In this document: piece by piece, positions 1 to 34,530 of the stretch
How the letters are laid out: every line of letters starts with the position of its first letter
How positions within the stretch are numbered: position 1 is the first letter of the stretch
NCBI GenBank assembly: GCA_040218735.1
Contig: JAVJQW010000046.1
Coordinates: 160,001 to 224,000, forward strand
From: Deltaproteobacteria bacterium
GTDB lineage: Bacteria > Myxococcota > Kuafuiibacteriia > Kuafuiibacteriales > Kuafuiibacteriaceae
DNA length: 64,000 nt
Reading direction: 5' to 3'
Notes under the pieces: model-generated
Told to the model about the DNA's origin: nothing
The model's database searches: none
What the model saw: the letters and a program-made list of their open reading frames with translations, nothing else
Program-made: the position numbers and the translations under genes

Positions 1-636
1 GCGGTCACTCGCGCCGCTCGCGCGGGGGAGGATCGCGCCGTCCGCGACGAACGCGACGAGGCCGCGCTCGGCGAGCTGACCGCGCAGGTGGGCTTGGTCC
101 TCGACGGTGTCGACGAAGCGCTCCGCGTCGTATGCGCCGTACTCGTCGGCGAAGAGGCTGAGGCGCGCGACCGCGGGGAGGTCGTCGAGGAGGAGCGCGA
201 TCGCCTCGCGGGCGAGCACCGAGCGCCCCGCCGCGGGGAGGCCGGCGGTGATGCGCAGCTCGACGAAGTCGTCGGTGACGCACGCGGCGGTGCGTTCGAG
301 GACCTCCTGCCCGCCCGCGTCGATGCCGACCGCACCGCTCTTGCCGCTGCCGCGTCGTCCGCGACACACGTCGTGGATCACGGTCCGGGCGACGCGCGCG
401 AGGAAGTCCTCGAACGCGACGCGGCGCACGCGGTTCGCGAAGAGCGCGGGGTCGACGCCGGCGCGCTGGGTGTCGACGCGGAGCCGGAGCTTGGACGGCG
501 CGGCGAACGGGTCGCCCTGCACGTGGTCGATGAAGAGCTGCACCTCGCCGAGGTCGTATGCACCCGCGATGTCCTTGTAGGCGCGGTAGCCGCGGCGGTC
601 GATGCGACGCAGCTCGGATTCGAGAGGGGAAGACAC
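1..636 (-). CDS. ABC-class ATPase-like protein (COG3044/PF09818 type), N-terminal part; runs off the window start
   Basis: Not in the ORF track. Hand translation from GTG at 636 gives SSPLESELRRIDRRGYRAYKDIAGAYDLGEVQLFIDHVQGDPFAAPSK...FVADGAILPRASGASDR, the characteristic N-terminal motifs of this family. It starts 2 nt after the sixA stop. Confidence 0.85.
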   Translation of the reverse strand, partial: MSSPLESELRRIDRRGYRAYKDIAGAYDLGEVQLFIDHVQGDPFAAPSKLRLRVDTQRAGVDPALFANRVRRVAFEDFLARVARTVIHDVCRGRRGSGKSGAVGIDAGGQEVLERTAACVTDDFVELRITAGLPAAGRSVLAREAIALLLDDLPAVARLSLFADEYGAYDAERFVDTVEDQAHLRGQLAERGLVAFVADGAILPRASGASDR

Positions 637-638
637 GG

Positions 639-1145
639 TCAGTCGTTGATGTCGGTGACGAGGCGCGGGCCGTTCGGCTCGATGACGAACTCGAATGCGC
701 CACGACGCGTGTTTCGGTCGAACATCACCCCGAGCACGGTGCCGGGCGAGAAGGAGCGCGGGTACTCGGGCACGCGCAGCAGGGCGCTCGCGAGGATGCT
801 CATCGTGGGTTCGTGACCGACGACGAGGAGCCCTTGGACGTTGGCCGGGGACTGAGCGATCACGTCGACGAGCGCGGCGGTCGACGGGGGCTCGGCGACG
901 ATGCGGCGCGCCGCGATGCCTTCGTCGAGCCCGAGCTCGCCGGCGAGGAGCTCCGCGGTCTGCACGGCGCGCACGAGCGGGCTGGTGAGGATGTGATCGA
1001 TCTGCGGCGGCTGCGCGGCGAGGAGGCGGCCCACCTTGCGCACGGAGCGTCGCCCGATCCCGGTGAGCGAGCGTTGACCGTCCGCGACGTCGTAGCCCGG
1101 TTCCGCTTGGCCGTGACGCGCGAGGAACACCGGGAGGACACCCAT
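639..1145 (-). CDS. sixA: Phosphohistidine phosphatase SixA (histidine phosphatase family)
   Basis: RHGQA, SPLVRAVQTA and LVVGHEP motifs. ATG at 1145 is preceded 7 nt upstream by a TATCGT hexamer. Confidence 0.88.
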   Translation of the reverse strand: MGVLPVFLARHGQAEPGYDVADGQRSLTGIGRRSVRKVGRLLAAQPPQIDHILTSPLVRAVQTAELLAGELGLDEGIAARRIVAEPPSTAALVDVIAQSPANVQGLLVVGHEPTMSILASALLRVPEYPRSFSPGTVLGVMFDRNTRRGAFEFVIEPNGPRLVTDIND

Positions 1146-14847: not shown

Positions 14848-14868
14848 ACGCTGCTATGTCCGAGGTGC

Positions 14869-20708: not shown

Positions 20709-23700
20709 TCACCGTAACGACCGATCCAGATCCTGCGCGCGGTCCTGAATCCAGCGGCCGCGCGCGAGCTGGTTCCACGCCTCGAAGCGCTCGACGATCG
20801 CGAACACTTCGTTCAGCGCGTCGCGCGCCGCCGCCGCATCCCCCGCCATCTCGCGCGCCGTCGCGTAGATCAGCAGCGCTTCGGCCAGGTTCACGCCGTT
20901 GTCGATCGTCTCGGAGCGACGCCAGCGTCGTGAGAACGACTCGACGCTCAACGCCGCCTCGTTCGCCGCCTCGAACGGGGCGAAGCGCGCGAGTTGGAGT
21001 CGCGCGCTCCCAAGGTGCGCGTGACCGAAGTAGTAGCTGAAGCGTGGGTTCGTCGGGTCGAGCTTCATCTGCGCGTCCATCGCCGCGAGCGCTTGCGCGA
21101 ACTGAGACTGTGCGGCGTCGAGCTCCCCGGCGTGAATCAAAGCCTCGCCGAGGCCGCAGCGCGCGACGACGATGCGCAAGTGTGTCGCGCGGCGCCCGGG
21201 CCGTTCTCGCTGCGCGATCTCCAGGACGTCGAGCGCGCGCGTGAGCTCGACGCGCGCCTGCTCGAACCGACGCGCTTCGGCCGCGTACTCCCCGGCCCGC
21301 AGGTGCAGCCAAGACCGACCGTCGACCGCCGCGAGGGCGTCCTGGGGCGCGCGTCGCTCGGACGCGGCGCGTGCCCGATCGAGCTCGGCGAAGGCCTCGT
21401 CGACTTCGCCCATGCGGGACGCGAGCGTCGCGCGGCCGACGTGCATCCGGACGAGGCGCTCGAGGTCCTCGTCGTCAGGCGTCGCCTCCAACAGAGGAGC
21501 GAGCAGGCGCTCGTAGGCCTCGGTCGCCTCCACCGCGGTCTCGAAGGGGCCGACGCCTTCACACAGTGACTGCTGATCGCCGAGCACGTCGATCAGGATG
21601 CGCCGCGCGGCGACGTCGTCTGCGTCGGCCTGGACGACGGGGACGAGCAGCTCGCGCGCGTCCGCGTTGCGCGTGCGCGCGAGCGCGTAGTCGAGGTCAC
21701 TTCGGTCCTGCCAGTGCAGCTCGCGCAGCGTCTTCGCCAGCTCCAGCTTCGCGTCGACGGAGTCGGGCGCGAGCGCGACGCGGCGTCGACCGAGGCGCTC
21801 CGCTTCGAGGAGCTCGCGCACCGCGAGGTCGTGCGCTTCGTAGCGGCTCGCGAGGCTCGCGCGTTTGCGGTGGCTCCGCACGCGACTCGCGATGACCTCC
21901 AAGGACGAACCGTCGTCACCGTTCAGTCGGTCGAGCAGATCGCCGGCGGTGTCGAGGAGCTCACCCCGCGCGCCGCTCGTCCCGGGGATGCGCGCGAGCT
22001 GGTCGTCGAGATCGTGCACGAGCCGGTCGGCGACTTGCTTGGCCTCGGCGCGGCGTCGCTCCGCGATCACCCGCTGTGCTTCGGCCTCGGCGCGTTCGAA
22101 CATCGCCCACACCGCGAGCACGAGCGCGAGCGCGAGCGCGACGGAGAGCGCGAAGACCCGTCGACGAAACTCGCGCGCGCTACGCGAGCGTCGCAGCTCC
22201 TCCGCGGCGACGGCCGCGTCCACGAACGCCCGCGCCGTGCGGTCCTCGGCCTCCGCGCTCCGGTAGTACGCGAGCTGTCCGCCCCGCGGCAGACCATCTT
22301 CGGGGCGTCCCGCCGTGTGCCACGCGAGCGCCGCCGTGCGCAGCTCTTCTCGTCGCTCGAGATCACGACGGCTCGCGTCGACCCACCGACGCAGCTGTGG
22401 CCACTTGTCGAGCAGCGCTTCGTGCACGAGGTCGACGTGATCGTCGGCGACGACGATCAGCCGCGCATCCGCGAGGCTCGAGAGGACACGCTTCGCTTCC
22501 GCCCCGCCCCCGGCGGCTTCGACCGCGCGCTCGTAGGGGATCGTGCGTCGCACGTCGGGCTGGTCTCGGCCGCTCACGACCAGCGCGAGCATCAACGTGC
22601 GCGCCCGAACGCGCCCCTCTTCTCCGAGCGCTTCCAGGACCGCGTCGGCGCTCCGCGCGAGCGCGCCGCCGAGGCCGCCGATCCGCTCGTACGCCTCCAC
22701 CGTGATCGTTCGACCGCCGCAGTCCACCCACAGCGTTCGCAGCGCGTGGCTCACCAGCGGCAGCGAGCCGGGTTCGTTGCCGGCGTCCGCGATGATGCGG
22801 TCCGGGAGCTCGGGCGCCCACGTCGTCCCGGTCAACGCGGCGGGGCCGACGATCGCTTGGCGGAGCGCAGCCCCGGTGAGCGGGCGTAGCTGGTAGCGCG
22901 CGGCCGCGTCGTTGAGCAGCGGTCCGAGCCCGGGGAGCCGGCTGACCTCCTGCGCGAAGTCGGTGCGCATCGTCGTGACGAGATAGATCGGCGCGTCGAG
23001 GGTGACGGCGTCGGTGAGCCAGCGATCGAGCTCGAGCGCCGCTCGGGTCTCGGGTGCGCGGAACAGCTCTTCGAGCTGGTCGACCACGATCAGCAGACCT
23101 TCGTCGGAGTCGAGATCCTCCGCGACCTCGCGGACTGGATCGTCCGAGGTGGTCCCGAGCGCCGCGCGAAGCGCACCGGCGGGATCGTCGCCGGGCCGAA
23201 TCACCGCGGCGCGCCAGCTCGTCGGCCCGCCGGCGATCCACCCGCAGCGGATGGCGGGGAGGAGGCCGGCCCGGACCACCGACGACTTGCCCACGCCGCT
23301 CGCGCCCTCCACGGCGAGCCACCGGCGGCTCGGCCCCATCCGGGCGACGAGCTCGCGAATCTCGTGGCTGCGTCCGAAGAAGAAGAGCGACTGGTCCTCG
23401 CGGAACGCGGCGAGGCCGGGGAAGGGCTCGCGGTCGTCGGTCGCTTCGATCTCGACGACCGACCGGGTGCCCACGCCGTGCGCGGCGGCGATCCGCCGGA
23501 CCTCCGCGAGCACGGCGGAGGCCGAGGCCGGGCGCCCGTCGGGCGTCGGGGCGAGGCAGCGGCGCACCAGATCGTCGAGGGCCGGCGGCACGTCTCTTGT
23601 GGTCGTCCGTAGCGACGCCGCCCCGATCGGAGCGGCGTCGTCCTCGAAGGGGCGCTCGCCGCTGAGCATCTCGTACGCGATCACACCGATCGCGAAGACG

Positions 23701-24395
23701 TCGGCGCGTTCGTCGTTCGCCTCACCGCGCACGCGCTCGGGCGCCATGTACCCGGGCGTTCCGATTCGGTCGTTGGCACCGATGCCTTGCCAGGCGCGCT
23801 CGTCCGCGGTCGCGATGCCGAAGTCGAGGACCTTGAGGCGCCCGTCCGCGCAGGAGAAGACGTTCGCCGGTTTGAGATCGCGGTGCACGATCCCGCTGTC
23901 GTGCGCGTACGCGACGCCCTGGCAGAGACCGTCGAGCAGCTCCAGCGCCCCCTCGACGGACAACGCCCCACGCTGGATGCGTTCGAAGAGTGTCTCCCCC
24001 TCCAGCAGCTCCATGACGAGGAATGGCGTTCCCGTCCACTTCGACTCGATCGCCTCGCGGCCTCGGTACAACGTACGGGCCGTCTTCACGTCGTGCACCA
24101 CGACGATGTTCGGGTGCGGAAGTCGCGCGGTGATCCGCGCTTCGCGTTGGAAGGTTCGGACGTACGTGCGGCGCTGCTCGGCACCGAGTCGGCTCAGGTG
24201 ACTCGGCGCCATCAGCTTGAGCGCGACGCGTCGGCCCAGCTTTCGATCCACCGCTTCGTACACCGCGCCGAACCCGCCGGCGCCGACGCGTCGAAGGATC
24301 TGGTAGCGCTTGCCGATCCGCGTCCCGCGCTCGAGCGGGGGCTCGGGCGCTCGCAAGGCATCTTGCATCCAGCTCGACAGGCCGTAGCCGCTCAT
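20709..24395 (-). CDS. Ser/Thr protein kinase fused to an nSTAND1-type NTPase, a TM helix and a TPR-like C-terminus
   Basis: Kinase GAGGFG, VALK, HRDLKPAN, DFG and GTPGYMAPE. NTPase PFPGLAAF..FFFGR, GASGVGKSS, VVDQLEELF and LVHEALL. TM FALSVALALALVLAVWAMF. Confidence 0.9.
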   Translation of the reverse strand: MSGYGLSSWMQDALRAPEPPLERGTRIGKRYQILRRVGAGGFGAVYEAVDRKLGRRVALKLMAPSHLSRLGAEQRRTYVRTFQREARITARLPHPNIVVVHDVKTARTLYRGREAIESKWTGTPFLVMELLEGETLFERIQRGALSVEGALELLDGLCQGVAYAHDSGIVHRDLKPANVFSCADGRLKVLDFGIATADERAWQGIGANDRIGTPGYMAPERVRGEANDERADVFAIGVIAYEMLSGERPFEDDAAPIGAASLRTTTRDVPPALDDLVRRCLAPTPDGRPASASAVLAEVRRIAAAHGVGTRSVVEIEATDDREPFPGLAAFREDQSLFFFGRSHEIRELVARMGPSRRWLAVEGASGVGKSSVVRAGLLPAIRCGWIAGGPTSWRAAVIRPGDDPAGALRAALGTTSDDPVREVAEDLDSDEGLLIVVDQLEELFRAPETRAALELDRWLTDAVTLDAPIYLVTTMRTDFAQEVSRLPGLGPLLNDAAARYQLRPLTGAALRQAIVGPAALTGTTWAPELPDRIIADAGNEPGSLPLVSHALRTLWVDCGGRTITVEAYERIGGLGGALARSADAVLEALGEEGRVRARTLMLALVVSGRDQPDVRRTIPYERAVEAAGGGAEAKRVLSSLADARLIVVADDHVDLVHEALLDKWPQLRRWVDASRRDLERREELRTAALAWHTAGRPEDGLPRGGQLAYYRSAEAEDRTARAFVDAAVAAEELRRSRSAREFRRRVFALSVALALALVLAVWAMFERAEAEAQRVIAERRRAEAKQVADRLVHDLDDQLARIPGTSGARGELLDTAGDLLDRLNGDDGSSLEVIASRVRSHRKRASLASRYEAHDLAVRELLEAERLGRRRVALAPDSVDAKLELAKTLRELHWQDRSDLDYALARTRNADARELLVPVVQADADDVAARRILIDVLGDQQSLCEGVGPFETAVEATEAYERLLAPLLEATPDDEDLERLVRMHVGRATLASRMGEVDEAFAELDRARAASERRAPQDALAAVDGRSWLHLRAGEYAAEARRFEQARVELTRALDVLEIAQRERPGRRATHLRIVVARCGLGEALIHAGELDAAQSQFAQALAAMDAQMKLDPTNPRFSYYFGHAHLGSARLQLARFAPFEAANEAALSVESFSRRWRRSETIDNGVNLAEALLIYATAREMAGDAAAARDALNEVFAIVERFEAWNQLARGRWIQDRAQDLDRSLR

Positions 24396-24991
24396 CCCAG
24401 GCCAGCCTCTTCGGCCTTCGCCTTGAGGCGTCGCGTCGCGCGCGAGAGCCGTTGACGCACCGTGGCCTCACTGAGGGGCGCGTCGGGTGTCGACAACCGC
24501 TCGGCGATCTGCGCGCACGAACACTCCTGCCGAAAACGAAGGAGGATGAGTGACGCGTCCTGCGGCCGGAGCTCGGCGAGCACCGACTCCAGGGCCTCGA
24601 CGCGCTTCTCGCGCTCGTCGCGATCGCGCAGGTTCGTGCTGGGGCCGGGGCCGGTGGCCTGGATCATCGCCGCCTCTCGCGTCTCGAGGCGCTGCTCGTG
24701 CGCACGGCGTCGCGCGCGCTTCGCGAGGTGTCGGTAGGCCTCGCGTCGGGTGATGCGGAACAGCCAGGCCCGCAGCCGGCGTTCAGCGTCTTCCTCGGAG
24801 CGGTCGACCTTGCCCAGGTGGCGGAACGTTCGGACCAGGACCGCCTGGAAGACCTCGTCCACCTCGGCCTCCGCGTTCAGCAACTGCGACAACCACCGTC
24901 GCAGCTCTCGTTCGTGGCGCGCGACGAGCACCTCGGCCGCGCGTTCGTCGTCGTCGGCGGCGAGATGGACGAAAACCTCGTCGACGGCCAT
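24392..24991 (-). CDS. ECF RNA polymerase sigma factor
   Basis: LRAWLFRITRREA (sigma2) and SEATVRQRLSRA (sigma4); its stop overlaps the kinase start. Confidence 0.88.
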   Translation of the reverse strand: MAVDEVFVHLAADDDERAAEVLVARHERELRRWLSQLLNAEAEVDEVFQAVLVRTFRHLGKVDRSEEDAERRLRAWLFRITRREAYRHLAKRARRRAHEQRLETREAAMIQATGPGPSTNLRDRDEREKRVEALESVLAELRPQDASLILLRFRQECSCAQIAERLSTPDAPLSEATVRQRLSRATRRLKAKAEEAGLG

Positions 24992-25047
24992 CGAAGCCCA
25001 GCGTACGGCAACCGGAGGGTCGGCCAGCGAAAAAAAGCGCGCGCCCC

Positions 25048-25075
25048 TGTCACGCGCGCCGAACTCGCCGGGTCT
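25048..25075 (+). promoter_or_regulatory. Putative ECF-type promoter TGTCAC-N17-GGTCT
   Basis: Same motif and spacing as 35735-35762; A-tract upstream; 8 nt before GTG 25084. Confidence 0.55.
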
Positions 25076-25083
25076 GCAGCCCC

Positions 25084-28023
25084 GTGAGACCCGTTTCGAT
25101 CGTCGGATCCGGCGCCCGGATCGTCACCGTCTGTATCGTCCTGGCCCCCAGCGCCGCCGTCGCCAAGGGGGGGACCGGCCCCGCCCAGCCGGCACCGTCC
25201 GGTCGCCTCGCGCCCCAGGCGGCGTCGCAGATCGGGGTGCGGCAGTGCCCGGCGCCGGCGCGCTCGGACTGCGAGAGCCTGAGCTACGCGCTGTCCCCGT
25301 GCGGCGAGCAGGAGTCTCGGCGCGCGACAGGGCGGGTCGGGTTCGGCGCCTGCTTCGAGCGGTGCGCGGAGGTGACCCCGACGATCGCGCAGTGTCAGGA
25401 CGAAGCCTGGCTGAACTCGATCTGCGGTCGGCTCGAGCGGCAGCGCATGGACCTGGAGCCGGTCGCGAGCGGAGTTCACCCTTCGGTGTGTTTCCAGCTG
25501 CTGTCGACGCTCGGTGACGCGGTCTTCATGGGCACCGCGAGCGCGACCGCGATGGTCCCGCCCGAGGTCGACTGCGACGGGTGCGTCACGCCCAACAACA
25601 CACCGCTGAGCCTGACGCCCGCGCGCCGCCTCGACGACGACCGCTCGGATTACACCATCGAGCCCCCGACGTCGAACTACTACGGCCGGCTCGCCGAGGA
25701 CTTCACGCACTTGTCGAAGGCGCCGGGCAGCGACCCGCACCAGAACCGCTTCACGATGCAGAGGCAGACCTGGGCGAGCAACGGTCCGACCGTGCTGTCC
25801 TGCGCGGAGTACGTCTACGAGAAGTACTACAACTTCAACGCCTACCTGGATCGCGCGGCGGCGGTCGCGCCCGATCACCGCGCGATGTTCGACATCGCCT
25901 ACGCGTTGGATCGCAACGGCGGCCCCGAGCCGTGGGCGATCGGGGAGCGCGGGGTGCTCGGTCTCCCGGTGCAGCACTTCGACAGCGCAGTCGCGACGAC
26001 GCCGCAGGTCGAGCTGCCGTCGGAGCTGCAGGGGCGCAACGTCTTCTTCGACGCGGTCTACATGCTCGACGCGGAGCGCGCCGACTTCCGAGAGCAGTTC
26101 GATGCCGGCGAGCTGCAGACGTCGCGACCGGTCGGCTACGGCATCTTCCTCTTCGACGACGACCTGCAACAGCGCATGCGCGCCGGCGCCCAGACGCGCA
26201 ACCGCGTCGTGAAGAGCTTCGCGTACCACAAGATGATGGGCGCGGCGCTGACGCCGAGCCTGATCGAGCCGCAGTTCAGGCTCTACGAAGGCGCGCGCCG
26301 ACGTTTCGCCGATCTGGTTCGTCGACACCAGCTGATCTGGATCGCGTACTTCGAGTGGCTCACGCAGTTCACCGACGACGTCGACCAAGCCATCCCGGAG
26401 GTCCAGGTGTTCTTCGATCCGGCGGGGAACCTGATCGACCCCGCGCCGTTCATCGGCAGCCCGGTCGCGAAGGTCCTGGACGGGGCGCGTGAGTTCAAGA
26501 GCCAGCGTCGGCAGGCCCACGGCCTCCGCACCTCGACGACGAACCAGCGCCCGCAACTCATCTTGCCGGCGCGTCGTCCGGCTGCGTTCTCTGCGCAGTT
26601 CTCTGCCGCGGGCCCGGGCGGACTCTCCGGCCACCCTGGGTTCTCGCCCCTCGTCCAGCAGACGATCGACGAGACCCTCACCAGCCTCACGCCCTACGAG
26701 AGCTGCAACACCTGGGTCTGTTTCCTGGAGGCGATCGCCCAGACCGAAGCGCTGATCGAGGAGGCGCTCGTCGCCGCGCGCGACCTCGGCTGCCTCGACG
26801 TCGGGAGCCCCCCGCACCCTTGCGACTGGAGCCCGCTCGACTTCGTCGAGGCGCTCGGCGATCCCTACGAGACGGTCCGCGAGCCCGAGTTCCGCGCGTG
26901 CGTCGAGAAGACGCCGGGCGAGACGCCGTTCGCCCGACTTCAGCAGGCGGACTTCAGCTACGGCAACGGGCAGGTCCCCTCGTGGGATGGGCAGCCGTGC
27001 GTCGCGGGGGACTACACCGTCTCGATCCCCATGGTAGAGCGCTACTTCGACTGCCGCGTCGAGTGGGTGAAGGCGGTCCTCCTCGAGCTCCAGAGCCAGC
27101 TCGACGAACCCGATCTCTTCGAGCCCGGTCCGCCGGCGCAGCTCGTCGTCGGCAAGCAGGACAGCGACCACAACCGCGTCGGCAACGACATGTTCGGCGC
27201 GCAGCTCGACTACGACATCGGCTGGACGCTCCCCGGCACGAGCCTGCCGGCGCCAGGGACCGGAGACTACTGCGGCCTCCAACCTTCGGCGCGGGCCAGC
27301 ATGTCGGCGCGCGGGCGGGCGCTGTTCCTCGAGAAGCAGCTGGTCGAAGCCAGCGCGGAGGTATCACTCGCGCCCGGCGAGCCGAGCTCCGCGTTCCTGG
27401 AGGTCGCGGGCCAGGAGATCTTCCACCCCGACCCGGTGCAGTTCTCGGCGGCGGCCTTCAACCCCGTGCTCGAGGCGCAGGAAGATCTCTCGGAGGACAT
27501 CGTGAAGGCGAGCGCCACGATCACGGTGGTGTTCATTCCGGTGAAGATCGCGGGCGGCATCGCGGGGCGCATCTCGGCGGGGGCGTCGGTGGCGGCGGGC
27601 GCGCAGAAGGGTTCGTCGTGCGCGAACGGTGACCTCGGCCTCGTCGCGGAGTTCGCGCCGGCCACCGCGCTCGACGCGTTTGCGTCGGCGAGCATCGACG
27701 CGGTGATCGTCGAGGCGGGTGTGCAGATCACGCTCACGATCATCTCGCTCGAGCTCCCGCTGTCGACGAGCCTGCGCTTCGACGGCGTGGGCGCGGGCGC
27801 GACGCAGGACTCGAGACTCACCGCGAACGCCTCGCTCGACTTCGTGCTGCGGATGCTGTCGGGGCGCGTGAGCGCGTTCGTCGAGGTTTGTTACATCATC
27901 GACTGCGAGCGCGCCGAGGCCACGCTCTTCTCGTGGGGCGGCCCCACACTCACCGAGAACATCTTCGACGTCGCCTTCGAGGTCCCCGTCGAAGCCATGT
28001 CGATTCTGCAGGACGACCTGTGA
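25084..28023 (+). CDS. Large secreted Cys-rich protein with an amphipathic beta-sheet C-terminus
   Basis: Signal-like N-terminus; SCAEYVYEKYY and CDWSP motifs; C-terminal long alternating strands (ATITVVFIPVKIAGGIAGRISAG...VEAGVQITLTIISLELPL...LSGRVSAFVEV). Confidence 0.8.
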   Translation: MRPVSIVGSGARIVTVCIVLAPSAAVAKGGTGPAQPAPSGRLAPQAASQIGVRQCPAPARSDCESLSYALSPCGEQESRRATGRVGFGACFERCAEVTPTIAQCQDEAWLNSICGRLERQRMDLEPVASGVHPSVCFQLLSTLGDAVFMGTASATAMVPPEVDCDGCVTPNNTPLSLTPARRLDDDRSDYTIEPPTSNYYGRLAEDFTHLSKAPGSDPHQNRFTMQRQTWASNGPTVLSCAEYVYEKYYNFNAYLDRAAAVAPDHRAMFDIAYALDRNGGPEPWAIGERGVLGLPVQHFDSAVATTPQVELPSELQGRNVFFDAVYMLDAERADFREQFDAGELQTSRPVGYGIFLFDDDLQQRMRAGAQTRNRVVKSFAYHKMMGAALTPSLIEPQFRLYEGARRRFADLVRRHQLIWIAYFEWLTQFTDDVDQAIPEVQVFFDPAGNLIDPAPFIGSPVAKVLDGAREFKSQRRQAHGLRTSTTNQRPQLILPARRPAAFSAQFSAAGPGGLSGHPGFSPLVQQTIDETLTSLTPYESCNTWVCFLEAIAQTEALIEEALVAARDLGCLDVGSPPHPCDWSPLDFVEALGDPYETVREPEFRACVEKTPGETPFARLQQADFSYGNGQVPSWDGQPCVAGDYTVSIPMVERYFDCRVEWVKAVLLELQSQLDEPDLFEPGPPAQLVVGKQDSDHNRVGNDMFGAQLDYDIGWTLPGTSLPAPGTGDYCGLQPSARASMSARGRALFLEKQLVEASAEVSLAPGEPSSAFLEVAGQEIFHPDPVQFSAAAFNPVLEAQEDLSEDIVKASATITVVFIPVKIAGGIAGRISAGASVAAGAQKGSSCANGDLGLVAEFAPATALDAFASASIDAVIVEAGVQITLTIISLELPLSTSLRFDGVGAGATQDSRLTANASLDFVLRMLSGRVSAFVEVCYIIDCERAEATLFSWGGPTLTENIFDVAFEVPVEAMSILQDDL

Positions 28024-28034
28024 GGAGGCCCCTC

Positions 28035-29798
28035 GTGAAGAACGTCTACGTGCTCTCGATCATCGGCGTGGGTCTGCTGTCCGCGCTGTGGTTGTGGCGT
28101 CCATCCACGTCCCAGAGTCCCGACGCCGTCGATCAAGACGCGCGTCACTACCGACTCGCGCTCACGGTGCGCGACGAGACGCGCCTCCCCGTCGCGGAGG
28201 GTGCGGCGGTTCCGGTCACCGCGGAGGTGCACCTGCAGACGGATCTGTTGGTCACCGTGCCGACGCCTCGGACGCGCGGATTGCGTTTCGTTCGCGTCGA
28301 CGCCGCGACGCTCGCGGTGGGGGACGACGGCCGGAGCGGCTCCCTCGCTTCCGCGGTGGAGGGCCTCGACGCGCTCGTCGTGTTGCGCGACGACGGCACC
28401 GTCGCCGGCATTCGTGTCCCCGAGCGCACCGAGCTGGTCGCCGAGCGGCTCGTGAAGCTCGTGGCGAGCGAGCTGGTGTGGACGCGGCCCGCGAAGGGCG
28501 TCACCCACGAGCGGACCCGTCTCGGCGAGGTCGAGTCGAGCTACGCGATCGACGCTCGGACCTTTGTGCGCACCCGGCGCGGGGTTCGGTCTTGGGCGGC
28601 GTTCGACGGACTCGGCGTTCGAGGGCTGCGCGCGGAGCTCACCGGAGGCGCACGCGGCGCCATCGTCGAAGACGACATGATCACGACGCTCGAAGTCGAC
28701 GAGCGGGTCGTCGCCTACCGGAAGAACGAACGTCTCCTGCAGGCGCAGACGAGGCTCGACCTCGAGCTGCTGGGCCGCGTCGCCGCGCCCTCCGCAGCCC
28801 GGCTCGGCCCGCTGCGCTCCCTCGTCGATCACCCGGTCAGCGTTCACGCGGAGGCGCGCGCGCAGGACGCACGCATCGCGGGCCTCACCGCCGATGCGCT
28901 CTGGTCCGCGCTCGACCGAACGGGGGCGTCCGGCGAGTTTGCCGACCACGCGCGAATGCTCGTGCGCGCGACCGCGCTGCTCCGGAAGCAACCCGCGCTC
29001 GTCGACCAGGTCGGCGCGAGGTTCCGGGAGCCGGCGACATCGGACGCGGAGCGCACGCTCCTGCTCGATCTGCTCGTGGGTGCGGGGACGCCCGCGGCGC
29101 AAGCCGCGTTGACGGAGCTCCTGGACGAGCCGCTGGTGCGCACCCACCCCGAGCGCCACCTCTGGGACCAGCGCGTCTCACTCATCGGCGCGCCGACGCC
29201 CGCGACCGTCACCTATGCCTCCGCCGCCTTCGCGCGACGCTCCGGGGTCGACGGAACGACCGCCGCGTACGTGCTCGGCGCGGTGGCGAGTCACCTGCCG
29301 GATCGCCGCGCTGCAGCCGCGCCGATCGTCGAGCGGCTCAAAGCGGCGCGGGAACCGTTCGAGCGCGCGCACCTCATCTCGGCGCTCGGCAACGCGGGCG
29401 GGGACGCGTTCGTCGGGTCCATCGCGGCGTACGCCGACGCCGGCGAGCCCGAGGTCCGCCTCGCGGTGGCCAAGGCGCTGCGCAAGACCGACGTCGAGGA
29501 TGCACGCGCCACGCTCGTGCGCCTCAGCGCGGACCGGAGCGCGGTCGTCCAGCGCCGCGCGCTGCTGTCGTTGAGCCGCATGTCGACGTTGTCACCGGCC
29601 GAGCTCGACGCGCTCGGTGCGGCGGTGCGGACGGCGGCAGTCGCTCAGACGAGCCTCGGCGCGCTCGTGAACCTGCTTGCGGCGCAGCCGTGCTCTTCGC
29701 GGCGCGACGCGGTCCTGCGGGCGGTGCGTGCGCAGCCCAAGGAGGGCGGGGCGGTCATCGACGCGCGGACGCGCGCCCTCGAAGCGCGGTGCGGCTGA
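28035..29798 (+). CDS. Membrane-anchored protein with a beta domain plus a helical domain, resembling the vitellogenin/MTP lipid-transfer N-terminal module
   Basis: GGAGG SD; N-terminal TM; ERTRLGEVESSY; LLDLLVGAGTPAAQ; PT motif; YVLGAV; ISALGNAG; EVRLAVAKALRK. Confidence 0.7.
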   Translation: MKNVYVLSIIGVGLLSALWLWRPSTSQSPDAVDQDARHYRLALTVRDETRLPVAEGAAVPVTAEVHLQTDLLVTVPTPRTRGLRFVRVDAATLAVGDDGRSGSLASAVEGLDALVVLRDDGTVAGIRVPERTELVAERLVKLVASELVWTRPAKGVTHERTRLGEVESSYAIDARTFVRTRRGVRSWAAFDGLGVRGLRAELTGGARGAIVEDDMITTLEVDERVVAYRKNERLLQAQTRLDLELLGRVAAPSAARLGPLRSLVDHPVSVHAEARAQDARIAGLTADALWSALDRTGASGEFADHARMLVRATALLRKQPALVDQVGARFREPATSDAERTLLLDLLVGAGTPAAQAALTELLDEPLVRTHPERHLWDQRVSLIGAPTPATVTYASAAFARRSGVDGTTAAYVLGAVASHLPDRRAAAAPIVERLKAAREPFERAHLISALGNAGGDAFVGSIAAYADAGEPEVRLAVAKALRKTDVEDARATLVRLSADRSAVVQRRALLSLSRMSTLSPAELDALGAAVRTAAVAQTSLGALVNLLAAQPCSSRRDAVLRAVRAQPKEGGAVIDARTRALEARCG

Positions 29799-29823
29799 TG
29801 CGGCCGGGACGGGAGCACTGAAC

Positions 29824-32800
29824 ATGTGGATCTTGTTGTTGGGGGCGGCGATCGCGTCGCCCGGGTCGGGAGCCTTCGAGGCCAACGTGGGGCAGGCGCC
29901 CGCCGCGGTGAGTCACCTGGTCCGCGGCGATCGGGAGGTCGCGTTCGTGACCGAGGACGGGTTCGTGCTCTCGGTACCGACGCCGGATTCCGTGGTGAGC
30001 CTCCGCGGCCGCTGGCGGGGGGCGTCGAGGTCTCGCGCGAAGGGAGCGGAGCCTCTGCAAGGTGCCTTGCATTACTTCCTCGACGGCCCCGAGGGTCGGC
30101 GCGCAGCGCGGTACCGCCGCCTCGAGGCCGCCAATATGTATCCCGGGATCGATCTCGGCTACGGCCTCGGGGACACGCTGCGCTTCGGTTTCGAGCTCAC
30201 ACCGGGCGCGGACGCGGCGAGGATTCGGCTCGGCTTCGACGGGGAGGTCGTGCTGCGCATCGAGCCGCGGAACGCGTGGATCGACGTCGTCGACCCGCGG
30301 TCCAATCGTGTCGTGATGACCGTCCAGCTGTCGGGTCTACGCGCGTGGCAGGAGGGGGCGGGCCGCCGGGATGAGGTCGACGTCCGCTTCGTACGACGGG
30401 GCGACGCGCTCGGGTTCACGCTGGGACCGCACGACGCGAGACGCGCCGTGTATATCGATCCCGACATCACCTTCGCGAGTTACATCGGCGGCGCGAACTT
30501 CGACGAAGGCCGCGACGTCGCGGTGGACGCCGCAGGTTTTGTGTACGTCACGGGCGCCAGCCTCGACCCCGGAGCGATGTTCCCGACCACGTCCGGCGCG
30601 GTTCAACCCATGCCGTCGGGCGCCATCGACGCCTTCGTGTTGAAGGTCGACCCGTCGCAGACGGGTGCCAACGCGCTCGTCTACGGATCGTTCATCGGCG
30701 GCGCCAGCGACGACCAATCGAACGGCATCGCCGTCGACGCCAACGGCCGCGCTGCGATCGGCGGTACGACCTGGTACGGAACCGGCAACGCCTTCCCCAC
30801 GACCGCGAACGCCTACTCGCAGACGCCCGGCTCGTCCTTCGTCACCATGCTGAACGCAGCCGGCTCGCAGCTCGTCTACTCGACCTTCTTCGGGGGAACG
30901 ACGACGAGTGTGGCCGCGGTCGCGATCGATCCCGCCGGCGATGTCATCGCGGTGGGCGTCACCGACGGCACCACCGCCATCCCGCAGGTCAACGCCATGA
31001 CCGTGCCCGGGCAGAGGAGCGCGTTCGTCGTGAAGTTCGACGTCGCGGGCGTGCAGGCCTCCAGCGTGGTGTACGGGACGCGCTTCGACGCCAACAGCGC
31101 GCTGGGCGTCGAGGCGGACGCAACGGGGATCTACCTCCTCGGTCAGACGGCGGGCCTCGGTCTCAACCCCACGCCGGGCGCGGCGCAGACCACAGCGGGC
31201 GGAGGCTTCGACTACTTCGTCGCCAAGCTGGACCCGGCGCAGGCCGGCAGCGCCGCCATCGTCTACACGACCTACGTGGGAGGCACGACCACGGATGGCG
31301 GAGCGATCTACTACGATGGCATCGCCATCGACCCGAGCGGCGCGGTCTACGTGACCGGGGTGACCGGGGGCGGCTTCCCGACGACCCCGGGGGCGCTCGC
31401 CACGACGGCACCCGGCGGAGGCGAGGGGTTCGTCACGAAGATCGCTCCGAGCGGCGGCTCCTTCGTGTACTCCACGTACCTCGGCGCCACCGGCAACGAC
31501 GGCGGCTATGACATCGCCGTCGACGCGATGGGCCGCGCGTACGTCGCGGGCTTCGGCGACGGCGTACCGGTGACGGGGTGCGGGGCGACGTCGCCCGGGG
31601 GTGGTTTCGTCCTCCAGCTCGACGCGCAAGGGAGCGCCGTCGTGCAGGCCAGCTACCTGGCACCGGGCGCGAACCTCCGACCCTACGCGCTCGCTCTCGG
31701 GCCCACCGGGAACGCCTACGTGGTCGGCTCCATCGGTCCTCCGCTGGTGCTTTCGACCCCGGGCGGTTTCCAGACGGTGCAGGCCGGGCTCGACGCCTTC
31801 GTCGCCGAGCTATCGCCCTCCGGCGCTTGCGCCGACCTCGCGGTCTCGATCACCGCCTCGCCGAACCCGGTGTCGGGAGGCGCCGCCGCTCAGTTGCAGG
31901 CCAGCTTGCAGAACCTCGGTAGCGACGACGTCGCGCAGGCCGACCTCTCGGTCTTCGTGCCGCCCGAGCTCACGGTCTTGGGCATCACGCCCTCTGTGTG
32001 CACCGGCGGCCCCACGTACGTGTGCCCCGTCGGACCGCTCGCCGCGGGCGGGAGCGTCACGGTGGCCTTCGACGTCGAGGCGACGGCGGCCGGCACCTTC
32101 ACCGCCACCGCGGCGGTGTCCGCGGCGGTTCAGGACCCGGACTCCGCGAACGACGCGGACGAGGTCGCGCTCGTCGTGACCGCACCCAACACCCCCTGCG
32201 GCTTCGTCACGTTGTTTGGGGCGTGCGCCGACGACACCCTCAGCTTCTGCGAGGATCGCGGTCGCCCCGCCGAGCGGTTGGTGGAGGTCGACTGCGCCAC
32301 CGATGCGTTCCCGGCCGGAGTCCCCGGACAGTGCACGCTCATCAACGCGAGCTACGGCTTCGACTGCGCGGTCTCCCCCGGCGGAGTCTGTGCGTTCGTC
32401 GACGCGCAGGACCGCCCCATCTTCGCGCTCTGCGCAGGCGACGCGGCCGGCTGTCGGATCGATCCCAGCGCAGGCACCGCGCAGTGTGAGCTCGGACTGC
32501 CGGCGTGTCTGTCGGAGGGGTTCGACGTGCAGTGCGCGGGGGACCTGTTGGTGCAGGAGTGTCAGGTCGATCAGCCGGTCGTGCTGGACTGTGCGTCGAT
32601 CGGTGGCGAGTGCGCCAACGCGCGGTGCGAGGCGTTGCCGCTCGGCGCGCCCTGCGAGGCCGGACGTTTGCTGTGCGCGACGGGCCTCGTCTGCGACGCG
32701 GTGTCCGAGCGCTGCGGGGATCCGGCGCAGCGCTGCGATCCCACGACCTACCGGAGCCGCTGCGACGGCACCACGCTCACCGCCTGCGACCGAACCCGGA

Positions 32801-33519
32801 GCCGCGTCGTCTCCGTCGATTGCAACGCAGCTTTCACGCCCTCCGACGGCACGACCTGCGGCGCGCCGTTCACGTGCCAGGGGCGCAGCTGCGGCGATGT
32901 CAACCTGACTTGCATCGGCGGGGGTGAAGGCGCCCGCTGCGATCTCGCGCGCGAGATCTACTGCGGTGCGGGCTTCGGGTGTGTGCTCGAACGCGACGTG
33001 AGCGGCGACATCGGCGGCGTCTGCCGAAGCACGTCGATGTGCGCGGCCCCGCCCGACCCGGCCTGCGTCGGTGACATCGCGCCGGTCTGCCTCCGCGGGG
33101 AGGGCATCACCGCCGTGGAGGCGCAGGGCGTGGACTGCGCGAGCTTCGGCGGCGCCTGCGGCATGGATGGGACGACCGCGATCTGCGTTGGCGGCGTGGA
33201 CGCCGTGTGCCAGGTCGTGGCGCGGGGCGGCGCGTTGCTCCGTTGCCAGTCGGGGCTCACGTGCGAGGACGTCGACCCCGACGGCTTCGGCGTCTGCCGC
33301 GGCGAGGTGGAAGAAGTCGACGGTGGCGTGCGGACCGACGCATCCACGCCGGGCCGTGACGGAGGCGTCGCGGACGCTCCAGACGCCGGGGTCGAGCCCC
33401 CCGAGGACGGCGAAGGCTGTAGTTGCCGCGCCGCGCCGCGTTCGTCCGACGCCGAGTCGGGATGGCTGCTCCTGGCGCTCCTCCTCGGGCGCCCGAGAAA
33501 AAAACGCCCCCGCCATTGA
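29824..33519 (+). CDS. SBBP-repeat beta-propeller surface protein with a DUF11-like Ig domain, a Cys-rich region and a MYXO-CTERM anchor
   Basis: Repeats of (S/T)Y(I/L)GG...D.G..IAVD..G..YV.G; ADLAVSITASPNPV; C-terminal GCSCR...GWLLLALLLGRPRKKR. Confidence 0.88.
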   Translation: MWILLLGAAIASPGSGAFEANVGQAPAAVSHLVRGDREVAFVTEDGFVLSVPTPDSVVSLRGRWRGASRSRAKGAEPLQGALHYFLDGPEGRRAARYRRLEAANMYPGIDLGYGLGDTLRFGFELTPGADAARIRLGFDGEVVLRIEPRNAWIDVVDPRSNRVVMTVQLSGLRAWQEGAGRRDEVDVRFVRRGDALGFTLGPHDARRAVYIDPDITFASYIGGANFDEGRDVAVDAAGFVYVTGASLDPGAMFPTTSGAVQPMPSGAIDAFVLKVDPSQTGANALVYGSFIGGASDDQSNGIAVDANGRAAIGGTTWYGTGNAFPTTANAYSQTPGSSFVTMLNAAGSQLVYSTFFGGTTTSVAAVAIDPAGDVIAVGVTDGTTAIPQVNAMTVPGQRSAFVVKFDVAGVQASSVVYGTRFDANSALGVEADATGIYLLGQTAGLGLNPTPGAAQTTAGGGFDYFVAKLDPAQAGSAAIVYTTYVGGTTTDGGAIYYDGIAIDPSGAVYVTGVTGGGFPTTPGALATTAPGGGEGFVTKIAPSGGSFVYSTYLGATGNDGGYDIAVDAMGRAYVAGFGDGVPVTGCGATSPGGGFVLQLDAQGSAVVQASYLAPGANLRPYALALGPTGNAYVVGSIGPPLVLSTPGGFQTVQAGLDAFVAELSPSGACADLAVSITASPNPVSGGAAAQLQASLQNLGSDDVAQADLSVFVPPELTVLGITPSVCTGGPTYVCPVGPLAAGGSVTVAFDVEATAAGTFTATAAVSAAVQDPDSANDADEVALVVTAPNTPCGFVTLFGACADDTLSFCEDRGRPAERLVEVDCATDAFPAGVPGQCTLINASYGFDCAVSPGGVCAFVDAQDRPIFALCAGDAAGCRIDPSAGTAQCELGLPACLSEGFDVQCAGDLLVQECQVDQPVVLDCASIGGECANARCEALPLGAPCEAGRLLCATGLVCDAVSERCGDPAQRCDPTTYRSRCDGTTLTACDRTRSRVVSVDCNAAFTPSDGTTCGAPFTCQGRSCGDVNLTCIGGGEGARCDLAREIYCGAGFGCVLERDVSGDIGGVCRSTSMCAAPPDPACVGDIAPVCLRGEGITAVEAQGVDCASFGGACGMDGTTAICVGGVDAVCQVVARGGALLRCQSGLTCEDVDPDGFGVCRGEVEEVDGGVRTDASTPGRDGGVADAPDAGVEPPEDGEGCSCRAAPRSSDAESGWLLLALLLGRPRKKRPRH

Positions 33520-33542
33520 ACGGTCCGGTGGAGTCGGGCGTT
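33517..33542 (+). promoter_or_regulatory. Putative autoregulatory ECF promoter TGAAC-N17-CGTT
   Basis: Typical ECF AAC/CGT elements 14 nt upstream of the sigma GTG; A-tract upstream. Confidence 0.5.
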
Positions 33543-33556
33543 GTGTCCCCCGAACC

Positions 33557-34105
33557 GTGCGGGACCTCACCGACGAAGCCCTGATCCTCGCCGTCCGCCG
33601 CGGCGAGATCCGCGCCTTCGACGAGCTGTACCGCCGCTACGCCGACCGTCTCTTCGGGTACCTGCTGAGGTACGTCACGGACCGCGCCGAGGCCGAGGAC
33701 CTCCTCCAGGAGGTCTTCATGGCCGTCCTCAAGGACCAGGCGTTGGAGCTGCGCCCCGGACAGGTCGGTGGCTGGTTCTTCACCGTCGCCAAGAACCGCG
33801 CGCTGTCACGGGTCCGTCGGCGCCGCACCGAAGAGAAACACCGCCCCGAGCCGCCCGCGCCGATCGAGACCCCCGAGGCCAACGCCGAGCGCCGCGAGCT
33901 GGTCGCGCGCGTCGAGCTCGCCGTCGAAGGGCTCCCCCAACCGCAAGCCGAGGCGCTGATGCTCAAAGTCGTCGGCGGCCTCACCTACGCGCAGATCGCC
34001 AGCGTGCAGGACGTGCCCGAAGGCACCGCGAAGTCGCGCCTGCACCACGCCATCCGCGCCGTGCGCGCCTTCTTCGCGCGCGACCAAGAAGGAGAAATCT
34101 CATGA
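33557..34105 (+). CDS. ECF RNA polymerase sigma factor
   Basis: AFDELYRRY, AEDLLQEVF, WFFTVAKN and PEGTAKSRLHHA. Confidence 0.93.
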   Translation: MRDLTDEALILAVRRGEIRAFDELYRRYADRLFGYLLRYVTDRAEAEDLLQEVFMAVLKDQALELRPGQVGGWFFTVAKNRALSRVRRRRTEEKHRPEPPAPIETPEANAERRELVARVELAVEGLPQPQAEALMLKVVGGLTYAQIASVQDVPEGTAKSRLHHAIRAVRAFFARDQEGEIS

Positions 34106-34530
34106 ACCACGAAGAATGCCTGGACGCCCTGCACGACCACCACTTCGGTGAGCTCGACCGCGCGACCGACGACGCCGTGCGCGCCCACCTCGCCGACTGC
34201 AGCGACTGCGCGCTCGAGTACTGCCGCCTGCGCGCGGACCTCGATCGCCTCGGCGCACTGCAGACCGCGCGACCGAGCGCCGCGGTGCGCGCCGCGCTGC
34301 GCGCGAAGGTCGAGGCCGAGTTCACGCCGACGTTGTTCGACCGCATCCGCGCGTTCTTCGCGGCGCCCGTCCCGATCTACCAGCCGGCCATGGTGCTGGC
34401 GCTCGTCGTCGCGGTCGTCGCCGTCGCGTGGCCGTCCGACTCTACGTCCTCCGTCCCCACCTCCAACCCGACCGTCGTCGACGACTTCGACGGCGCGGAC
34501 CTTCGCATCGTGGACCACCGCGTCCTCTGA
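34102..34530 (+). CDS. Zinc-finger (ZAS) anti-sigma factor
   Basis: HLADCSDC (HxxxCxxC), one TM helix, ATGA overlap with the sigma gene. Confidence 0.88.
   Translation: MNHEECLDALHDHHFGELDRATDDAVRAHLADCSDCALEYCRLRADLDRLGALQTARPSAAVRAALRAKVEAEFTPTLFDRIRAFFAAPVPIYQPAMVLALVVAVVAVAWPSDSTSSVPTSNPTVVDDFDGADLRIVDHRVL

Follow-up and report, generated by a model that had tools for sequence, protein, structure and literature searches.

A two-gene locus of Myxococcota that probably encodes a split relative of the large lipid transfer protein module

Two adjacent genes, here g1 and g2, lie in a 64,000-nucleotide stretch (the window) of the genome of a Deltaproteobacteria bacterium of the phylum Myxococcota (GenBank assembly GCA_040218735.1, contig JAVJQW010000046.1, positions 160,001 to 224,000 of the forward strand). 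The g2 protein is a structural relative of the N-terminal module of the large lipid transfer proteins (LLTPs) and, at the level of its family, a sequence relative as well. The C-terminal domain of g1 plausibly resembles the lipid-binding sheets that follow this module in LLTPs and is predicted to dock onto g2, and we consider it rather probable that the two genes represent a split bacterial version of the LLTP module, enclosing a cavity for lipid or another hydrophobic cargo. All positions below are those of the window.

The two reading frames stand 11 nt apart on the same strand and have the lengths that a first-pass annotation, made from the letters of the window, had given them:

25084-28023, plus strand: g1, gene for the partner protein, 979 aa; GTG start, TGA stop (open reading frame and translation)
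28024-28028, plus strand: GGAGG Shine-Dalgarno sequence of g2, immediately 3′ of the g1 stop codon (28021-28023) and 6 nt 5′ of the g2 GTG (sequence)
28035-29798, plus strand: g2, gene for the LLTP-N-like protein, 587 aa; GTG start (open reading frame and translation)

The placement of the GGAGG, abutting one gene and leading directly into the next, suggests that g2 is translationally coupled to g1. The G+C content of the window is ∼70% and it consequently holds many spurious frames. Letter-for-letter copies of both proteins are already present in public collections, where the g2 family goes by no other names than “HEAT repeat domain-containing protein” or “hypothetical protein.”

An AlphaFold2 (AF2) model of g2, based on an alignment of 150 relatives, has a mean predicted local distance difference test score (pLDDT) of 93.7 and a predicted template modeling score (pTM) of 0.85. 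It divides the protein into three parts:

28038-28094, plus strand: residues 2-20, hydrophobic N-terminal helix, signal anchor or uncleaved signal (AF2 helix; sequence VYVLSIIGVGLLSALWLW)
28137-28784, plus strand: residues 35-250, β-barrel-like domain around helix 134-147 (AF2 strands)
28842-29792, plus strand: residues 270-586, helical domain of about 20 helices (AF2; the C-terminal half scores as HEAT_2)

This is the order of anchor, β-domain, and helices that the first-pass annotation had read from the translation. As in the N-terminal module of LLTPs, the barrel strands surround a longer central α-helix, and the helical domain follows directly after the barrel and is collinear with it. The motifs LLDLLVGAGTPAAQ, PT, YVLGAV, ALGNAG, and VRLAVAKALR, proposed earlier as marks of this module, occur in the g2 translation in that order and fall on near-invariant columns of the 150-member alignment (L347, G351, A355, Q356, P387, G415, L451, G452, N453, R475, and L482). 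The E..LG...SY motif assigned to the β-part is there in rough form and not exactly as written; the conserved points of that part are G164 and G214. The protein carries two Cys residues. Its chain ends at residue 587 together with the helical domain, which is the point at which LLTPs go on into their sheets; lipid-binding A- and C-sheets are not found after the helical domain in g2, and its best 150 relatives are 462 to 679 aa long, no separate search having been aimed at longer, fused forms.

A Foldseek search of the PDB with the g2 model places LLTPs at ranks 1 through 11, with E values from 1.3e-14 to 4.6e-7. The list comprises MTP (6i7s_G, E 1.3e-14), lipovitellin (1lsh_A, E 5.9e-12, TMq 0.53), entries for apoB100 (about 1e-11 to 8e-10), honey bee vitellogenin (about 2e-9 to 9e-9), and an apoB barrel entry (9bd8_A, 4.6e-7), and HEAT-type proteins follow from rank 12 (2e-5). 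Structural alignment with VIA-align shows g2 to be collinear with LLTPs across barrel and helical domain, and the g2 barrel on its own matches the apoB barrel entry (Z; aligned residues; root-mean-square deviation, rmsd; g2 range; target range):

1lsh_A: 16.1; 512; 7.6; 34..572; 21..623
6i7s_G: 16.2; 500; 11.0; 33..572; 30..613
9bd8_A: 16.3; 288; 7.6; 34..358

Sequence comparison at the family level agrees with the fold. A single-sequence search of the PDB with g2 returns alphaRep designs as its sole matches; the profile of the family (150 relatives) reaches lipovitellin 1lsh_A at E 9.9e-7 (profile 365-525 to chain 338-509) and MTP at E of about 1.2e-5. The resemblance to the LLTP N-terminal module claimed in the first-pass annotation is thus supported. 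We scanned 78 of the 150 relatives (every second one after the first six) against Pfam. Vitellogenin_N (PF01347) is matched at E ≤ 0.01 by 45 of the 78, and 21 reach its 24-bit gathering cut-off; HEAT_2, which describes part of the helical domain only, is matched at E ≤ 0.01 by all 78 and at its cut-off by 70. We file the g2 family as LLTP related. An exhaustive profile search of 1.84 billion representatives gives 690 clusters at E ≤ 1e-30, 3,024 at ≤ 1e-10, and 10,692 at ≤ 0.001; the weaker clusters surely take in plain HEAT proteins, and the best 150 are full length.

The g1 protein is larger and its AF2 model, from a 46-row alignment, is of middling quality (pLDDT 73.7, pTM 0.66), with disorder at residues 1-52, 437-532, and 672-685. 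Its parts are the following:

25084-25164, plus strand: residues 1-27, signal-peptide-like N terminus MRPVSIVGSGARIVTVCIVLAPSAAVA (read from sequence)
25246-26373, plus strand: residues 55-430, Cys-rich, mostly helical N-terminal domain with a conserved SC.EYVYEKYY motif (pLDDT about 90 over most of it)
26701-27099, plus strand: residues 540-672, central helical region with an invariant GCL...C-DWSP motif (AF2; invariant columns)
27145-28014, plus strand: residues 688-977, C-terminal β-domain, the predicted docking part (the family's most widely conserved part)

The protein carries 23 Cys residues, several of them conserved. In the N-terminal domain, C94, C104, C114, C136, C240, E242, Y243, E246, and K247 are conserved, and C570, C580, D581, W582, S583, and P584 are the invariant columns of the central region. 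Relatives of g1 begin with typical Sec-type leaders. Because g1 and its relatives have signal-like N termini, and because Cys residues are conserved, g1 is probably exported or secreted; together with the hydrophobic N-terminal helix of g2, these features suggest that both proteins lie outside the cytoplasm.

The C-terminal β-domain comprises six short strands (688-780), long amphipathic strands (796-968), and a terminal helix (969-977) in the AF2 model, several of the strands being 20 to 27 residues long. Strands in 818-900 alternate between hydrophobic residues (mean Kyte-Doolittle values of about +2.1 to +2.7) and small or polar ones (−2.4 to 0). The tail of about 280 aa of long amphipathic strands that had been noticed in the sequence is therefore recovered, as strands spanning 688-968 in the model and as alternation in 818-900. 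No match to the single g1 sequence was found in Pfam, NCBIfam, or the PDB sequences, and the family profile gave only chance-level matches to PDB sequences (best E 0.16). In the ESM Atlas, residues 680-979 led to unnamed clusters only and residues 53-436 to no usable match. A word-indexed homolog search with a 26-row g1 alignment as query returned the same five close relatives only, and relatives were for this reason collected from genomes to build the 46-row alignment.

Fold searches with g1 give a mixed picture. Foldseek returns three matches at E ≤ 0.001, all of them LLTPs (MTP at 8.8e-5 and 4.6e-4; lipovitellin at 1.6e-4), followed by MTP 8eoj_B (0.015), bee vitellogenin (0.029), and then unrelated barrels and pore formers. 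VIA-align pairs g1 691..961 with MTP 613..869, exactly the portion left out of the alignment of g2 to MTP (30..613), at a Z of 7.1 that is level with those of outer-membrane barrels. In a Foldseek-free search, MTP (6.7) and apoB (6.1) come after PapC (9.4, rmsd 17.0) and one small protein (8.7). The likeness of the g1 tail to LLTP lipid sheets, as modeled, is thus plausible, and suggestive rather than decisive, because the fold searches are mixed and a sequence signal is absent.

The complex of g2 (residues 31-587) with the C-terminal part of g1 (residues 640-979), each with its own alignment, was predicted in three runs. The interface score ipSAE was 0.77, 0.85, and 0.86 (median 0.85), compared with 0.00, 0.20, and 0.00 for controls, and the pass mark applied is one that 116 of 157 solved complexes reach, as do 2 of 215 mismatched pairs. 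At least 62% of contacts are common to the runs, and the partner pLDDT is no lower than 56. On g2 the contacts involve the barrel (45-65, 95, 162, 190-193), the central helix (134-142), the linker (264-280), and one face of the helices 300-578; on g1 they fall within the short strands (688-782) and, farther along, at the ends of the long ones (788-885). The confident interface that the split-module proposal called for is therefore predicted, which supports, and does not prove, binding of the g1 C-terminal domain to g2.

The two families are widespread and occur together. The source genome (11.6 Mb in 70 contigs) carries a further, paralogous pair on another contig, whose g1-like protein is 33% identical over its full length, and a pair with about 30 to 36% identity is present in a metagenome-assembled genome of the Nannocystaceae. 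Myxococcus xanthus has relatives as well. Among 301 sampled genomes of the phylum, the g2 family (E ≤ 1e-20) is found in 94, corresponding to 86 of 255 high-quality genomes and 35 of 137 genera, with up to four copies per genome. The g1 family (E ≤ 1e-5) is found in at least 76 of the 301, a floor since two candidates per genome were scored. We picked 87 g1 places by hand from the genome-survey table, taking a frame only once where it was listed in several fragments. In most cases (73) a g2 place follows immediately on the same strand, with 12 to 1,126 nt between match edges; seven lie downstream of g2 (657 to 740 nt), and seven have no g2 within 3 kb, at least one of them at a contig end (G029:C81).

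Viewed from g2, 79 of 150 listed places have a g1 neighbor in the coarse survey table. Adjacency in 41 of 41 cases among the first 42 loci is not an independent test, because those loci were chosen where g1 had matched. As a fairer test we took 19 g2 places lacking a g1 neighbor in the coarse table and searched ∼5 kb on each side with the 46-row g1 profile. All 19 adjoin a g1-family frame that carries the C-terminal domain: 10 upstream, 6 downstream on the same strand, and 3 divergent, one of the 10 upstream cases (L085) being weak, at a distance of about 1 kb and with E 4e-14 for the front part and 1.6e-4 for the tail. The expectation that the two genes would co-occur across Myxococcota thus held. 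That the genes remain neighbors in three different arrangements speaks for a functional pair, and we regard g1 and g2 as obligate partners at the gene level. All-against-all clustering of the frames at 43 loci revealed no third conserved gene; only g1 (43 of 43) and g2 (42 of 43, the missing copy being cut off by a contig end) recur.

Variation among the loci shows which part of g1 is constant. Short relatives (394 to 555 aa) lack the Cys-rich N-terminal domain, and at four downstream-type loci g2 is followed by a short g1 with frames of 420 to 443 aa (one frame 732 aa); the conserved core is therefore the C-terminal domain, and the Cys-rich front half is optional. Other gene orders define sub-families (L075-L078, L087, L089-L094, L096, L097): in one, g2 precedes a short g1 with little beyond the C-terminal β-domain, which is the LLTP domain order, and in another g1 and g2 are divergent. 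At the other extreme, g1-like open frames reach 1,397 to 2,337 aa (1,397 to 2,200 aa at L036, L046, L066, L085, and L087), with additional N-terminal regions, for example Ser-rich or VCBS-like stretches; read stop to stop, these frames are either giant fusions or merged neighboring genes. At one locus beginning at a contig end, a partial second g1 C-terminal-domain frame (L042:1-1035, plus strand) stands directly upstream of a full g1 (L042:1038-3852, plus strand), so that the sheet protein is tandem-duplicated in this genome. Apparent g2 frames of 1,014 to 1,021 aa (L039, L040) were considered as fusions and rejected, being stop-to-stop frames that overlap g1 in another frame.

Other genes surround the pair in the window. 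Beyond g2, 29677-33519 (plus strand) encodes a protein of ∼1,280 aa with DUF7948, SBBP β-propeller repeats, DUF11/CARDB, and Cys-rich repeats. It ends in a GC.C...hydrophobic...basic tail, which resembles a MYXO-CTERM sorting signal. A 37%-identical paralog of this protein (L004:3045-6896, plus strand, contig C39) immediately precedes the other g1/g2 pair of the genome, and both pairs of the source genome therefore have such a neighbor; this is not so in other genomes. Upstream of g1, the region 20709-24991 (minus strand) contains a divergent gene for an extracytoplasmic function (ECF)-type sigma factor (24392-24991) and a gene for a 1,228-aa Ser/Thr kinase-nSTAND1 NTPase-TPR protein (20709-24395), the two overlapping by 4 nt, and a zf-HC2 anti-sigma-like frame is located at 33541-34530 (plus strand). 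The ECF sigma factor, kinase, and anti-sigma genes were rejected as conserved partners, as they are not kept beside the pair at other loci; at 8 of 43 loci, kinase-like frames do occur near the pair. The gap that separates g1 from the sigma-factor gene contains a G+C-rich inverted repeat with a 9-bp stem and an A/T run alongside (25026-25060), which scores as terminator-like on the minus strand, an odd position for a terminator, and may be a regulatory site. Farther away, two very long frames overlap on opposite strands (14869-19851, plus; 14854-19143, minus), the plus-strand frame (1,660 aa) having weak HEAT-type matches only (E 1e-4, under cut-off).

The closest known counterpart of the pair is the α-subunit of MTP (6I7S, 8EOJ), the smallest LLTP. 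According to PMC6717300, MTP has a half barrel (aa 21-297), with strands wrapped around a longer helix; a two-layer domain of 17 helices (aa 298-603), which clamps the lipid-binding sheets; and a C-terminal domain (aa 604-884) in which a six-strand C-sheet is followed by a six-strand A-sheet of twice its length and by a final helix of 11 aa. The half barrel and helical domain are the portion to which g2 aligns (MTP 30..613), and the elements of the modeled g1 C-terminal domain likewise run from a short sheet through a long sheet to an end helix. In the predicted complex, moreover, the same surfaces, clamp and barrel, would hold the sheets. The model thus likens the pair to an MTP split into two chains, without the protein disulfide isomerase (PDI) subunit and with a membrane anchor on g2. 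Unlike MTP, the bacterial proteins are two polypeptides from two genes, with the sheet protein usually encoded first; the large Cys-rich N-terminal half of g1 has no MTP counterpart, sequence identity is 10 to 15%, and the setting, given the bacterial source, would be periplasmic rather than the lumen of the endoplasmic reticulum. Compared with lipovitellin and vitellogenin (1LSH, 9ENR, 9ENS; PF01347), the g2 chain is far smaller and falls below the Pfam cut-off; a large open lipid cavity domain (DUF1943-type sheets), a vWD domain, and phosvitin are all missing from it.

We propose that g2 would be anchored in the inner membrane by its N-terminal helix and would present to the periplasm its barrel and a helical clamp of two layers, which together would be homologous to the module with which vitellogenin, MTP, and apoB begin. 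The g1 protein would be exported by way of its signal peptide, and its C-terminal ∼290 residues, forming a short-stranded sheet, a long amphipathic sheet, and an end helix in the order of the MTP C-sheet, A-sheet, and helix, would dock on the g2 barrel and the inner face of the clamp. The two proteins might then jointly form the walls of a hydrophobic cavity, in which lipid or other hydrophobic cargo would be held or moved in the cell envelope, while the Cys-rich N-terminal half of g1, which varies among relatives, would be an accessory, probably a targeting or binding module. Of this scheme, we infer the cell location, the formation of the cavity, and the lipid cargo.

Several observations weigh against a split LLTP module. 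By its own score g2 reaches only 16.2 bits against Vitellogenin_N (E 0.0041, residues 426-503 to profile 458-544) and is not filed as a member, because the 24-bit cut-off is missed; its best Pfam match is HEAT_2 (PF13646; 38 bits against a cut-off of 27.7, residues 430-513). The Vitellogenin_N matches of all relatives are confined to the helical part (profile about 335-575 of 590), so that the barrel is recognized by predicted fold only. Global TM-scores of g2 to LLTPs are modest (0.27 to 0.53) and the rmsd values high, the genes usually run from g1 to g2 where LLTP domains are arranged the other way round, and the complex score may partly be a memory of solved LLTPs, because the same parts touch within one LLTP chain. 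One could then suppose that g2 is a plain HEAT scaffold with an unrelated β-domain, its LLTP likeness convergent or a search artifact and its pairing with g1 meaning something else. This is very improbable: the LLTP alignments are single and collinear from the barrel through the helices, the apoB barrel entry is matched by the barrel on its own, and 21 of 78 relatives pass the Vitellogenin_N cut-off over a stretch about twice the length of the HEAT_2 match. Unlike g2, HEAT proteins of the PBS-lyase type (HEAT_2; alphaRep designs, CpcE/NblB) have neither N-terminal barrel nor membrane anchor, and HEAT proteins rank under all LLTPs in the g2 Foldseek list. On the Foldseek, VIA-align, and Vitellogenin_N results we reject a generic HEAT assignment for g2, the outcome that the first-pass annotation had named as fatal to its proposal.

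The main rival explanation concerns g1. Its β-domain may insert in a membrane, as an outer-membrane barrel or β-pore former, with g2 acting as a periplasmic holder, chaperone, or immunity protein. The g1 strands are alternating and Gly/Ala rich, and outer-membrane barrels, together with the pores of ushers and autotransporters, equal or exceed MTP both in VIA-align (Omp33 7.8, OmpT 7.4, EspP 7.4) and in the Foldseek-free search (PapC 9.4, AIDA-I 7.6, BamA 7.3), accompanied by weak Foldseek matches to MACPF and pleurotolysin pores (E 0.05 to 0.3). Fold scores alone do not decide the matter. The barrel and pore matches, however, span 85 to 199 residues, many at an rmsd of 14 to 18 Å, compared with 216 to 233 residues for MTP; Foldseek matches at E ≤ 0.001 are LLTPs only, the partner g2 independently has the fold of the LLTP N-terminal module, and the predicted interface buries the g1 sheets against the g2 clamp. 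We regard membrane insertion as unlikely. A role other than bulk lipid transport for an LLTP-like complex likewise seems to us unlikely; it might bind some hydrophobic molecule other than lipid, such as a pigment, a secondary metabolite, or a signal, or serve in surface recognition or adhesion, the N-terminal domains of g1 giving specificity. The variability of that part of g1, absent in short forms and with extra domains in long ones (frames of 1,397 to 2,337 aa), would suit such a role, as would the up to four g2 copies per genome, which fit diversified specificities, and the paralogous DUF7948/SBBP/DUF11 surface-type proteins adjoining both pairs of the source genome. Against it, no result points to any particular non-lipid ligand and the surface-protein neighbor is not kept at other loci.

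Full-text literature searches, which reach neither subscription journals nor preprint supplements, found no description of bacterial LLTP homologs; in the literature that they reach, as in the abstract of PMC1783640, LLTPs (vitellogenin, apoB, MTP, and apolipophorin) are treated as an animal superfamily. Should g1 and g2 form a lipid-binding complex, bacteria would have an envelope lipid carrier of a new kind; the pair would offer a simple, genetically tractable model for building an LLTP cavity from parts and would bear on the origin of the animal lipoprotein machinery. A broader view, possible though doubtful, is that the pair is a widespread two-protein LLTP machine in myxobacteria and their kin, truly homologous to vitellogenin, MTP, and apoB, which shuttles lipids across the periplasm between the membranes or loads surface structures or vesicles, and of which the animal LLTP is a fused descendant or a transferred relative. 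Were this true, the “animal-only” lipoprotein machinery would have a prokaryotic root.

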